From: a virus | UHGV virus genome: UHGV-0072853 | DNA: 10,782 nt | Reading direction: 5' to 3' (one strand) | Shown here: piece by piece, positions 3,610 to 8,949 of the stretch | How positions within the stretch are numbered: position 1 is the stretch's first letter | Layout of the letters: every line of letters begins with the position of its first letter | Notes under the pieces: model-generated | The model's database searches: none | Seen by the model: the letters and a program-made list of their open reading frames with translations, nothing else | Told to the model about the DNA's origin: nothing | Translations under genes and position numbers: made by a program

Positions 3610-4050
3610 ATGAAAAAACTAACCTTTGAAATTCGATCTCCAGCACATCAGCAAAACGCTATTCACGCGGTACAGCAAATTCTTCCAGACCCAACCAAAC
3701 CAATCGTAGTAACCATTCAGGAGCGCAACCGCAGCTTAGACCAAAATCGGAAGCTTTGGGCTTGCCTTGGTGACGTTTCGCGTCAGGTTGAATGGCATGG
3801 TCGCTGGCTGGATGCAGAAAGCTGGAAGTGTGTGTTTACCGCAGCATTAAAGCAGCAGGACGTTGTTCCTAACCTTGCCGGGAATGGCTTTGTGGTAATA
3901 GGCCAGTCAACCAGCAGGATGCGTGTAAGCGAATTTGCGGAGCTATTAGAGCTTATACAGGCATTCGGTACAGAGCGTGGCGTTAAGTGGTCAGACGAAG
4001 CGCGACTGGCTCTGGAGTGGAAAGCGAGATGGGGAGACAGGGCTGCATGA
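3610..4050 (+). CDS. ninB: NinB recombination protein (146 aa)
   Basis: Translation MKKLTFEIRSPAHQQNAIHAVQQILPDPTKPIVVTIQERNRSLDQNRKLWACLGDVSRQVEWHGRWLD... matches my memory of lambda NinB; length 146 aa as in lambda. G-rich RBS upstream of the ATG at 3610. The supplied ORF starts 18 nt earlier in frame. Confidence 0.88.
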   Translation: MKKLTFEIRSPAHQQNAIHAVQQILPDPTKPIVVTIQERNRSLDQNRKLWACLGDVSRQVEWHGRWLDAESWKCVFTAALKQQDVVPNLAGNGFVVIGQSTSRMRVSEFAELLELIQAFGTERGVKWSDEARLALEWKARWGDRAA

Positions 4051-4892
4051 TAAATGTCGTTAGTTTCTCCGGTGGCAGGACGTCAGCATATTTGCTCTGG
4101 CTAATGGAGCAAAAGCGACGGGCAGGTAAAGACGTGCATTACGTTTTCATGGATACAGGGGCAGAGCACCCTAAAACATATGAGTTCATCCGAAATATCG
4201 TCAGTAACTGGGAAATAGACTTACATTGCCTTCGTGTAATACCTAATCCAGAAATGGGGAAGGCCAGTAGTTATGAAGAGATAGGTGTCAATGATATTGG
4301 TCCAGATCTTATACCGTGGAAAAGGATGTTGAATAAATACGGACATCCATATATCGGCGGTGCGTTCTGTACCGACAGAATGAAGTCTGTTCCATTCACC
4401 AAATATTGTCAGGAAAAGTTTGGGAAAGGAAATTACATCACATGGCTTGGCATTCGCACAGATGAACCAAACAGGATTAAAAGGGCTAATGGTTTTCGGT
4501 ACCTGGCTGATATAAGCGATTTTGAAAAACAGGATGTGCTTGATTGGTGGAGTGAGCAGAAGTTTGATCTTGGCATACAGGAGCATCTTGGTAATTGTGT
4601 TTTCTGCATAAAAAAAAGTATGCAAAAGGTGGCGCTGGCAGCCATGGATGAGCCAGAACTTGCAGATGCATTTATCAACATCCTTGATACAGAAATAAAA
4701 ACAGGAAAGGAACCGGTTATGTATCGAGGGAATAATACACTTAAATCACTGATTGCCTTGTTTAGTGATATATCAAGAGATGAGTTAGCCTCAAGAATGA
4801 CATCAATGCGACAGTATGATTCAGGTTCGTGTTCTGAATCATGTGAAGCATTTTCATGTCAGCTTGGATTTAATTTTGAGGATGTGGCATGA
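4047..4892 (+). CDS. ninC: NinC-like protein, PP-loop / PAPS-reductase-fold family (281 aa)
   Basis: ATG at 4047 overlaps the ninB stop (ATGA). N-terminal PP-loop-like motif [16 protein letters not shown]; Cys motifs NCVFCIKK and [12 protein letters not shown]. Position after ninB corresponds to lambda ninC. The supplied ORF 3987..4892 is a 5'-extended version. Confidence 0.75.
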
Positions 4893-5065
4893 GACGACAG
4901 CGACGAAGCATCACCGACATAATCTGTGAAAACTGCAAATACCTTCCAACGAAACGCTCCAGAAATAAACGCAAGCCAATCCCAAAAGAATCTGACGTAA
5001 AAACCTTCAACTACACGGCTCACCTGTGGGATATCCGGTGGCTAAGACATCGTGCGAGGAAATGA
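4889..5065 (+). CDS. ninD: NinD-like small protein (58 aa)
   Basis: Own translation [58 protein letters not shown]; ATG overlaps the ninC stop (ATGA). Cys-x2-Cys and basic composition as I remember for lambda NinD. Below the ORF-track cut-off. Confidence 0.7.
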
Positions 5066-5067
5066 CA

Positions 5068-5427
5068 ATGGATTATTCACAGTTAAGTGATTTTGAAATT
5101 AACGTGGCGGTATTCGAAGCCATTCATAACGGATCACCGGATTACAAAGAAGGTGAGAATGGCGATATGGTGTTTGTCTCATTTGAGGGAGACATTGTAA
5201 ACGGAGACGCAGTTGAAGTAGAAGTTGAGCGCGGTTCCTTTAACCCATGCGCAAACCCAGCAGACGCATGGCCGATTATTGAAAAATACAGGATTAGCAT
5301 TATCAATCTCGATGAAGACGAGTGGGGTGCACGCGGTGTGGCCTACTGTAAATCTAAGCGAGCTATACATGAAAATCCCCTCCGCGCCGCCATGATTGTC
5401 TTTCTCATGATGCAGAGAATCCAATAA
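5068..5427 (+). CDS. Acidic hypothetical protein (119 aa) in the ninE slot, possibly NinX-like
   Basis: GAGGA 7 nt upstream of the ATG at 5068; an in-frame ATG at 5062 overlaps the ninD stop. The first ~95 residues are strongly acidic (many D/E), with a short basic/hydrophobic tail. The stop overlaps the next gene (TAATG). I recognise no known fold. Confidence 0.6.
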   Translation: MDYSQLSDFEINVAVFEAIHNGSPDYKEGENGDMVFVSFEGDIVNGDAVEVEVERGSFNPCANPADAWPIIEKYRISIINLDEDEWGARGVAYCKSKRAIHENPLRAAMIVFLMMQRIQ

Positions 5428-7568: not shown

Positions 7569-7575
7569 CCATAAT
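7546..7575 (+). promoter_or_regulatory. PR'-like late promoter
   Basis: TTGACA at 7546..7551 and CATAAT at 7570..7575 (18-bp spacer) at the 3' end of Q, upstream of a terminator hairpin: the expected layout for the Q-modified late promoter. Confidence 0.5.
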
Positions 7576-7585
7576 TAGAAGGTAA

Positions 7586-7627
7586 GCTGCCGTTAGTGAC
7601 TCTTAAGTTGCAACGGTGGCTTTTTTT
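7586..7627 (+). terminator. tR'-like intrinsic terminator
   Basis: Imperfect 9-bp stem (GCTGCCGTT / AACGGTGGC, two G-U pairs) with a 17-nt loop, immediately followed by a run of seven T (7621..7627). This would give a short PR' transcript unless Q acts. Confidence 0.55.
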
Positions 7628-8145
7628 GTTTGCACAACAGGTAAGAGCATTGAACCCGCAGACCTCGCGGAATTGGTGAAAGGTGCCGCGCAGTGCTCTT
7701 ATCGTTGTGGTGAATACGCAGGCTGATGCGTTAATCAGGTGAACGAGATACCCGCCGGTCCGTGATATGGCACACCGTGCCGGTCATATCTGCCGCGGTT
7801 AGGTTTACGAGGATTTCGTAAAGCTGGTCTAGGGTGAAGCCGTGAAAGCGGAGGAAGTAAAACGAGGCGTCGGTACACGCCTATCGTCATTAAGTCGGAG
7901 TTCAGCACCGACCGCCACAACCCAAACTGAGCCGTAGCCACTGGCTATCCTGAATTCATCAGTGATAGTTACGCTGCGGCCTTCTACACATGATCTTCGT
8001 GAAAGCGGGTGGCAAGAGGCTGCGCTAACAACCCCCTGCCGTTTTGCCCGTGCATATCGGTCACGAACAAATCTGATTACTAAACACAGTAGCCTGGATT
8101 TGTTCTATCAGTAATCGACCTTATTCCTAATTAAATAGAGCAAAT

Positions 8146-8159
8146 CCCCTTATTGGGGG
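8146..8159 (+). promoter_or_regulatory. Stem-loop CCCC-TTATT-GGGGG upstream of the S dual start (sdi-like)
   Basis: Perfect 4 to 5-bp G/C stem overlapping the S Shine-Dalgarno region, 7 nt upstream of the Met1-Lys2-Met3 dual start, as in lambda S translational control. Confidence 0.5.
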
Positions 8160-8165
8160 TAAGAC

Positions 8166-8489
8166 ATGAAGATGCCAGAAAAACATGACCTGTTAGCCGC
8201 CATTCTCGCGGCAAAGGAACAAGGCATCGGGGCAATCCTTGCGTTTGCAATGGCGTACCTTCGCGGCAGATATAATGGCGGTGCGTTTACAAAAACAGTA
8301 ATCGACGCAACGATGTGCGCCATTATCGCCTGGTTCATTCGTGACCTTCTCGACTTCGCCGGACTAAGTAGCAATCTCGCTTATATAACGAGCGTGTTCA
8401 TCGGCTACATCGGTACTGACTCGATTGGTTCGCTTATCAAACGCTTCGCTGCTAAAAAAGCCGGAGTAGAAGATGGTGGAAATCAATAA
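8166..8489 (+). CDS. S: Holin S, class I, lambda type (107 aa; antiholin S107 from Met1, holin S105 from Met3)
   Basis: [107 protein letters not shown] matches lambda S in my memory, including the MKM dual start. Confidence 0.9.
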
Positions 8490-8949
8490 TCAACGTAAGG
8501 CGTTCCTTGATATGCTGGCGTGGTCAGAGGGAACTGATAACGGACGGCAGAAAACCAGAAATCATGGTTATGACGTCATTGTAGGAGGAGAGCTATTCAC
8601 TGATTACTCCGATCACCCTCGCAAACTTGTCACGCTAAATCCGAAACTCAAATCAACAGCCGCCGGGCGCTATCAGCTTCTTTCCCGTTGGTGGGATGCC
8701 TACCGCAAGCAGCTTGGCCTGAAAGACTTCTCTCCGAAAAGCCAGGACGCTGTGGCACTGCAGCAGATTAAGGAGCGTGGCGCTTTACCGATGATTGATC
8801 GCGGTGATATCCGTCAGGCAATCGACCGTTGCAGCAATATCTGGGCCTCACTGCCGGGCGCTGGTTATGGTCAGTTCGAGCATAAAGCTGACAGCCTGAT
8901 TGCAAAATTCAAAGAAGCGGGCGGAACGGTCAGAGAGATTGAGGTATGA
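8473..8949 (+). CDS. R: Endolysin R, lambda-type lytic transglycosylase (158 aa)
   Basis: [83 protein letters not shown]... matches lambda R in my memory; 158 aa; overlaps the S stop. Confidence 0.9.

Follow-up and report, generated by a model that had tools for sequence, protein, structure and literature searches.

What does the ninC gene of lambdoid phages do, and how did an AT-rich version of it come to lie behind a lambda-type ninB? The question is raised by a 10,782-nt stretch of viral DNA, UHGV virus genome UHGV-0072853 (hereafter the window, meaning the whole stretch that was analysed), in which an open reading frame (ORF) of 846 nt on the + strand, from ATG at 4047 to TGA at 4892, encodes a protein of 281 amino acids. 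The ORF is a genuine ninC of a lambdoid prophage, and the gene is a hybrid of two alleles. From motif conservation and gene associations, its product is likeliest to be an ATP- and iron–sulfur (Fe–S)-dependent enzyme that would act on DNA against restriction.

The ORF aligned over its full length with lambda NinC (Nin 290, NP_040635; 57% amino acid identity across 286 columns, E = 9e-120 by BLASTP), matched PHROG 33262 at E = 1.3e-112 (family label PHROG 33262/424) and exceeded the cut-off of Pfam PF01507 (PAPS_reduct; 34.3 bits against 22.5), and its best DNA matches carry the annotation 'NinC'. It lies directly after ninB (3610–4050), as the NinC family requires, and before ninE (4889–5065). 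Its start overlaps the ninB stop through an ATGA, an overlap also present in lambda, and its stop overlaps the ninE start. The window and lambda proteins share the PP-loop and the GIRxDE, GNCxxCxKK and CSESCE motifs. They differ in length, the window protein being nine residues shorter, and at two cysteine positions: Cys39 of lambda is Ala in the window protein, and C271 of the window protein is Gly in lambda. We regard both the identity of the gene and its mosaic structure as very nearly certain. Public databases already contain this gene in exactly this allele, along with lambdoid nin regions of the same mosaic style; the sequence itself is ordinary, and its value lies in the lead that it offers on NinC function.

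Conservation was assessed in an alignment (A2) of 49 family sequences, the window protein and 48 others down to 30% identity, and in 77 viral loci from IMG/VR. A preliminary description of this DNA, made from its letters alone, had read the product as a NinC-like PP-loop protein of the 3′-phosphoadenosine 5′-phosphosulfate (PAPS)-reductase superfamily with cysteine motifs, and had named SFSGGRTS, CVFC and a C-terminal cysteine cluster. That reading holds for the family match and the motif conservation alike, and the translation places SFSGGRTS, CVFC and CSESCE at residues 6–13, 184–187 (nt 4596–4607) and 262–267. The NinC signature (SxSGGxxS, GIRxDExxR, GNCxxCxKK and CxESCE) is complete in the window protein and invariant or at least 90% conserved in the 49 relatives. 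Invariant residues are S8, S13, E40, C108, K113, G135, R137, E140, R143, G182, N183, C184, C187, K190 and C266, and C262, G9, G10, T37 and G38 are conserved in at least 90% of the sequences. Five cysteines (C108, C184, C187, C262 and C266) are kept in 76–77 of the 77 viral sequences, and C61, C121 and C271 are lineage-specific, the last occurring in 16 of the 77 with the window included. Of the C-terminal cysteine cluster proposed earlier, C262 and C266 stand as (near-)invariant residues, but its last member, C271, belongs to this lineage and not to the family. NinC is probably an enzyme rather than a decoy, given that the PP-loop, K113, GIRxDExxR, GNCxxCxKK and the five cysteines vary little or not at all even among relatives of 30% identity.

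The SGGxxS-type PP-loop and the Rossmann-like α/β fold that define the PP-loop ATP pyrophosphatase superfamily are both found in the window protein, and its AlphaFold model is confident (mean predicted local distance difference test (pLDDT) score 85.6) save for residues 262–281. The closest solved folds are CysH and the adenosine 5′-phosphosulfate (APS) reductases, binders of APS or PAPS mononucleotides. With hhalign, residues 3–140 aligned to E. coli CysH at 88% probability, while PDB searches with the single sequence and with a profile gave alignments limited to the first 70 residues. A fold search of BFVD returned just other phage 'PAPS reductases' and QueC. Many NinC homologues also carry an insertion of ~60–80 amino acids after about residue 145–150, between GIRxDExxR and a YPLAD motif, that has no Pfam match; they include Vibrio phage K137 (L008:2501–3541) as well as P0123, P0125, P0131, P0134, P0140 and P0145.

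Against models of individual enzymes in this superfamily NinC fell far short, by ten-fold margins for the curated PAPS reductase, APS reductase and DndC models. NinC reached 18.5 bits against a cut-off of 154 for the CysH equivalog PRK02090 and 12.4 against 254.2 for TIGR02057, 18 against 235.3 for the Fe–S APS reductase model TIGR02055 and 13.8 against 290.4 for the DndC model TIGR03183. The gathering cut-off of QueC (PF06508) was not reached, and generic PP-loop models failed likewise. The E. coli CysH tail ends KRECGLHEG, whereas NinC lacks the ECGLH catalytic motif. Compared with CysH and APS reductases (PDB 2goy, 1sur and 6vpu), NinC has a canonical SGG PP-loop in place of the SSSFG of E. 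coli CysH, and it carries an additional insert near residues 65–90 and a helical region at residues 190–255. Judged by these scores and motifs, NinC is not a CysH, DndC or QueC equivalog. The kinship with these three families claimed in the preliminary description is right at the level of the PAPS-reductase superfamily but stops there. The database name 'PAPS reductase' for NinC is a superfamily label and not a function, and phage genes so named should not be taken by default for auxiliary genes of sulfur metabolism.

Among defence-system profiles in PADLOC, NinC matched SspD best (2.9e-14, 51 bits), followed by BrxP (1.2e-7) and DndC (1e-4), DNA-phosphorothioation PP-loop enzymes with which it shares a PAPS-reductase-type PP-loop. 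The SspD match spans profile positions 3–122 of 277 alone, and NinC has no ssp neighbours. Unlike SspD, DndC and BrxP, NinC is phage- or plasmid-borne and solitary, with no DndA/D/E or SspA/B/C genes alongside. DndC has been described as holding a [4Fe-4S] cluster on three cysteines and using a sulfur-relay cysteine dyad, and this 3 + 2 logic would be paralleled in NinC by C108, C184 and C187 together with C262 and C266 on the flexible tail. In Fe–S APS reductases a Cys-Cys pair plus a CxxC ligate the [4Fe-4S] cluster; NinC has a single cysteine, C108, five residues before the conserved Lys and then a CxxC in the same chain order, and its C-terminal half did not align. NinC gave no significant sequence match to the [4Fe-4S] PP-loop thiolases TtuA, NcsA, TtcA and LarE-4Fe4S, which differ from it in acting on tRNA or cofactor substrates, in cysteine spacing and in having zinc-finger or other accessory domains.

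A second line of evidence ties NinC to DNA methylation. Fusions of NinC modules with Dam (PF05869) occur with either partner first, and a fusion with a D12 adenine methylase exists as well. The 77 IMG/VR loci include seven NinC fusions, two upstream Dam genes that overlap the NinC gene and one Dam gene 203 nt away. In an unbiased search of these loci, the recurrent neighbours were NinG, DnaB, NinB, exonuclease, CI and Q, plus Dam. In phage Sf101 a Dam gene occupies the ninB–ninE slot in place of NinC. A Chi-like phage and conjugative plasmids of Acinetobacter carry NinC-like genes with an N6 methylase nearby.

One such fusion belongs to a system with a phenotype. In a 2022 preprint, Piel et al. 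described a 479-aa protein, p0018, with a PAPS-reductase domain and a Dam domain, encoded in a two-gene cassette that confers resistance to Dnd in Vibrio crassostreae podoviruses (44E38.1 and 34E29.1). The p0018 protein of the cluster-mate phage 34E29.1 (479 aa, QZI91449) agrees with it in length, locus-tag number and domain layout, a full NinC module (residues 1–278) preceding Dam (residues 300–476). Its NinC module is 61% identical to residues 1–270 of the window protein and keeps all five conserved cysteines. Piel et al. moved p0018 and p0019 into a phage with a stand-alone Dam of its own, 96% identical, and obtained growth on a Dnd+ host. Methylation of GATC alone leaves DndFGH unblocked, and the recipient had Dam from the outset; the likely determinant is therefore the newly added NinC module or its DUF6475 neighbour. 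Within the NinC family, p0018 alone has a reported phenotype, anti-Dnd in combination with p0019; it differs from the window NinC in its C-terminal Dam domain and DUF6475 neighbour, the window protein being stand-alone, ending at residue 281 and having no methylase domain. The preliminary description had called the role of ninC unknown, which holds in that we found no described function, but the anti-Dnd cassette of Piel et al. includes a NinC-type module. One other anti-Dnd protein has been published, the unrelated kinase JSS1_004.

Taken together, the vibriophage module, the fusion, adjacency and slot-sharing with Dam, the 3 + 2 cysteines and the best match to SspD tie NinC to DNA-directed anti-restriction and turn an 'unknown nin gene' into a testable hypothesis. 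We place the probability of a DNA-directed anti-defence role at roughly 0.45. NinC would act as a stand-alone PP-loop enzyme that binds ATP at SFSGGRTS and adenylates a substrate, most probably DNA. An Fe–S cluster or metal may be held on C108, C184 and C187, and the C262/C266 dyad on the flexible C-terminal tail may carry sulfur, so that sulfur from the tail cysteines or the cluster would displace AMP. The resulting sulfur-type mark, or a related activity, would shield phage DNA from phosphorothioate-dependent (Dnd-type) restriction, often together with a phage Dam methylase. The specific sulfur-transfer chemistry is the more tentative part of this proposal. It is doubtful, going a step further, that NinC is a self-sufficient writer of a DNA sulfur mark (phosphorothioate or thiobase) using ATP, an Fe–S cluster and sulfur from a host cysteine desulfurase. 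If it were, the often-fused Dam domain could supply DNA targeting, and lambda as well as hundreds of phages and conjugative plasmids would bear an unnoticed DNA modification disarming phosphorothioate-dependent immunity.

Several points weigh against an anti-restriction enzyme of this kind. In the experiments of Piel et al., p0019 (DUF6475) was transferred with the fusion, so the anti-Dnd effect may stem from p0019 rather than from the NinC module. Cloned Dnd systems restrict lambda 3- to 60-fold (the ninC status of the stock is not stated); the strongest of them restricts lytic phages up to 1e5-fold. NinC is dispensable in K-12. The literature describes it just as 'poorly understood' or non-essential, a lambda-wide interaction study listing it among the poorly understood proteins, and holds no biochemistry for any NinC. 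The matches to SspD, BrxP and DndC are confined to residues 4–144, the N-terminal half, and the DndC cut-off is missed. With a mid-section profile (residues 92–196), nothing was found in PDB at E ≤ 10, and hhalign of the mid-section against the C-terminal half of CysH was insignificant, leaving that half unaligned; C108 and the CxxC are at most candidate counterparts of the APS-reductase cluster ligands. No DndA/D/E or SspB/C partner lies near NinC in the 77 viral loci or in the window, and complete phosphorothioation carried out by NinC unaided would therefore have no precedent.

The same lack of dedicated partner genes in the phage loci would fit a protein that mimics DndC or SspD and interferes through contacts with DndD/E, IscS or DndFGH, or drains activated sulfur or ATP, leaving no mark on DNA. 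The N-terminal likeness to SspD, BrxP and DndC and the anti-Dnd phenotype linked to the NinC–Dam fusion agree with such mimicry. However, catalytic-type residues and five cysteines that stay invariant across relatives of 30% identity point to chemistry and not mere binding, the repeated fusion to DNA methylases suggests co-action on DNA, and blocking host modification would not alone protect incoming phage DNA. We judge mimicry unlikely, and slightly less likely again an action of NinC on a free nucleotide or small molecule, such as a deoxynucleoside triphosphate precursor or a signalling or sulfur nucleotide. That proposal draws on the closest solved folds, which bind APS or PAPS mononucleotides, and on a nucleoside 2-deoxyribosyltransferase gene adjoining a NinC-like gene in a Chi-like phage. 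The canonical SGG PP-loop is unlike the degenerate loop of CysH, however; no other nucleotide-metabolism genes recur near NinC, and the methylase fusions are more easily fitted to a DNA substrate.

Modification of RNA, by tRNA thiolation or a lysidine-like reaction that might evade anticodon nucleases or tune translation, ranks just below action on nucleotides. NinC has no PUA, THUMP or TilS C-terminal domain by Pfam, its gene associations are with DNA methylases and with replication and recombination genes, and its nearest families by sequence form the PAPS-reductase, SspD and BrxP group. Far less likely than any of these is that NinC truly reduces PAPS or APS and serves as an auxiliary metabolic gene to boost host sulfate assimilation. 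Viromics papers routinely read such genes so, PF01507 scores above its cut-off and the nearest structures are CysH and APS reductases, but the curated equivalogs of both enzymes fail by a wide margin, the ECGLH tail is absent while the ATP-type SGG loop is kept, the modules are fused to DNA methylases, and E. coli already has cysH.

An anti-restriction enzyme remains the preferred reading of the protein; the history of the gene could be read from its DNA (Table 1). The ninB gene and the first 113 nt of ninC are 97–100% identical to lambda, and codons 1–37 are identical at all 111 nt. From codon 38 to codon 281, nucleotide identity falls to 56%, with third positions at 36.6%, near saturation (Fisher p = 7e-26). 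Salmonella phage SE16, whose DNA is 98% identical to the window over 4039–5070, displays the reciprocal pattern: its ninB is unrelated, codons 1–37 are 95.5% identical and the remainder is 99.2% identical. Because identity to lambda switches abruptly at 4160 and identity to SE16 switches reciprocally, the window ninC is a hybrid with a crossover in 4137–4159, within the codons for VHYVFMDTG. The left arm, ninB plus 37 codons, is of lambda type, and everything from there to the stop codon belongs to an old allele of low GC. Downstream, sequence identity with lambda, SE16 and Sf101 returns exactly at the ninE start. Lambda has ninC followed by ninD (57 aa, PF17466; L001:2825–2998), whereas ninD is missing in the window and ninC is coupled straight to ninE by an ATGA overlap.

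Table 1. Features of the ninB–ninE interval in the window, with the observations that define them (aa, amino acids; nt, nucleotides)
Feature	Position	Strand	Basis
ninB, Orf-family recombination mediator, lambda-type allele; 5′ flank of variable cassette	3610..4050	+	Pfam NinB PF05772, 1.1e-54; 96.8% nt identity to lambda ninB
ninC coding sequence, PP-loop ATP-pyrophosphatase-fold protein, PAPS-reductase superfamily	4047..4892	+	
Lambda-identical 5′ segment of ninC (codons 1–37 plus 2 nt), encodes PP-loop and reaches DTG motif	4047..4159	+	111/111 nt; first lambda mismatch 4160
PP-loop SFSGGRTS (aa 6–13)	4062..4085	+	S8, S13 invariant; G9, G10 in 46–48/49
Crossover interval, lambda-type 5′ part / low-GC allele	4137..4159	+	Last SE16-type mismatch 4136; last mismatch to E. 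coli locus L005 type 4128; first lambda mismatch 4160
Motif aa 36–45, equivalent to CysH TDTGYLFPETY	4152..4181	+	Profile alignments to PDB CysH/APS reductase chains; hhalign to E. coli CysH
Low-GC ninC allele segment	4160..4892	+	~99% to Salmonella phage SE16 and E. coli prophages; 56% nt to lambda
C108-T-D-R-M-K113, invariant Cys and Lys	4368..4385	+	C108, K113 49/49; hhalign: K113 = K of CysH 'INKVEP'
GIRTDEPNR (aa 135–143), superfamily Arg-rich loop	4449..4475	+	G135, R137, E140, R143 invariant; aligns with CysH GLRREQ
GNCVFCIKK (aa 182–190), invariant CxxC	4590..4616	+	G182, N183, C184, C187, K190 49/49; C184, C187 77/77 viral
CSESCE (aa 262–267), cysteine dyad in tail predicted flexible	4830..4847	+	C262 48/49; C266 49/49; pLDDT <50 for aa 262–281
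C271, lineage-specific cysteine outside family signature	4857..4859	+	Absent from 48/48 others in A2; lambda has Gly
ninE, 3′ flank of variable cassette	4889..5065	+	Pfam NinE 7e-44; four-way alignment: identity to lambda, SE16, Sf101 resumes

The AT-rich island that had been noticed within ninC was confirmed by windowed base composition: the guanine plus cytosine (GC) fraction is 0.403 across 4190–4800 against a window mean of 0.484, and just 1.2% of windows of equal length are as low. The low-GC block is properly 4160–4892, with a GC of 0.402, as low as in only 0.2% of windows, and a third-position GC of 0.357. It is about the lowest 732-nt stretch of the window, the actual minimum (0.400) starting at 4144. 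For comparison, lambda ninC has a GC of 0.46 and the window ninC 0.40. The preliminary description had also proposed an exchange by recombination of the central catalytic portion, between conserved ends, with a foreign homologue. An intragenic junction does exist, but the exchanged part runs from codon 38 to the stop and is bounded downstream by the ninE start; the PP-loop belongs to the 5′ portion shared with lambda. Only the 5′ end (113 nt, 4047–4159) is kept with lambda; the 3′ end (4801–4892) is itself AT-rich (0.39) and as diverged from lambda as the middle of the gene. The donor was indeed a second NinC allele, though one that circulates inside the enterobacterial lambdoid and P22-like gene pool. 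Neither uniform composition nor near-identity to lambda throughout was found, given the low GC and the 56% identity from codon 38. Local compositional drift in an ordinary lambda ninC without recombination, for which a GC somewhat below the window mean in the downstream ninE to ninH might be cited, is refuted by the abrupt change at 4160, where identity to lambda falls from 100% to 56% and third positions come close to saturation, by the reciprocal switch in SE16 and by the occurrence of the same low-GC segment at 99% identity in genomes with different left flanks. Antisense ORFs of 43–134 amino acids on the minus strand (4221–4681, for example 4221–4625) coincide with the AT-rich block; judged from the ORF list alone, they are most simply explained as stop-codon-poor frames, a by-product of AT-richness.

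The ninB–ninE interval is a swappable cassette site, for which at least five states were seen across the compared phages and prophages. It is empty in HK106, mEp234 and JEP4, holds a Dam methylase gene in Sf101, Dam and NinC in E. coli 98218 and 17 other genomes, the low-GC NinC alone in the window and SE16, and lambda NinC with NinD in lambda. The NinC allele is 98–99.6% identical in Salmonella P22-like phages and E. coli prophages, and, of 5426 complete E. coli genomes, 28 carry its low-GC segment, with 98.8–99.6% identity. In 18 of these 28, ninC is translationally coupled to an upstream Dam gene that overlaps its start: a phage gene of 175 amino acids (L005:1656–2183) separates ninB from this ninC allele, its stop codon overlapping the ninC start codon. 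Pfam annotation of the window genes revealed no Dam gene, and a crossover with a lambda-type phage in the shared 5′ segment of ninC would delete Dam in exactly this way.

In the family as a whole, about 1500 representative clusters matched NinC at E ≤ 1e-3, and a word-indexed database search returned 2185 proteins. With tblastn the family was detected in 539 phage records, Vibrio phages accounting for 341, and a search of plasmids showed NinC-like genes on phage-plasmids and on conjugative plasmids of Acinetobacter as well. The Acinetobacter genes (30% identity) occur on 141 records in a run of small same-strand genes. On an A. baumannii MOBF plasmid (L091:4983–5756), the NinC-like gene lies near genes for an H-NS-family protein, a thermonuclease and an N-6 DNA methylase, followed by ParA/ParB; the annotated Acinetobacter protein retains C108 and the CxxC and terminates before the CxESCE tail. 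In Salmonella Chi-like phage 37 (L009:1346–3834), a DNA methylase gene, a hypothetical gene, a NinC-like gene (29% identity) and a nucleoside 2-deoxyribosyltransferase gene stand in a row, a context that suggests DNA or nucleotide modification.

As a whole, the window covers the early-right and late-control region of the lambdoid prophage. Its genes encode, in order, a Cro-like helix-turn-helix protein, CII, O, a DnaB-type helicase, NinB, NinC, NinE, NinX, NinF, NinG, NinH, a Ser/Thr phosphatase, Q, holin, endolysin, Rz and a KilA-N protein. Scans for tRNA genes and Rfam families found neither in the window. About 600 bp between the Q and holin genes (7569–8165) are without a convincing ORF, tRNA or Rfam match and presumably hold the late promoter, the qut site and a leader region. 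In Shiga toxin (Stx)-type phages tRNA genes lie in the Q–holin interval; none is present at 7569–8165 here. The 158-aa ORF at 8473–8949 is the endolysin by position and, unlike its holin and Rz neighbours, has no Pfam match at E ≤ 1e-3; we take its sequence to resemble lambda R. Among the database matches to the nin region, GenBank MW057783.1 ('Campylobacter phage CJLB-4', 48,361 bp) has the same identity as lambda (97.4%) at a position within ~80 bp of lambda's, and this record looks like phage lambda under another name, or contamination.

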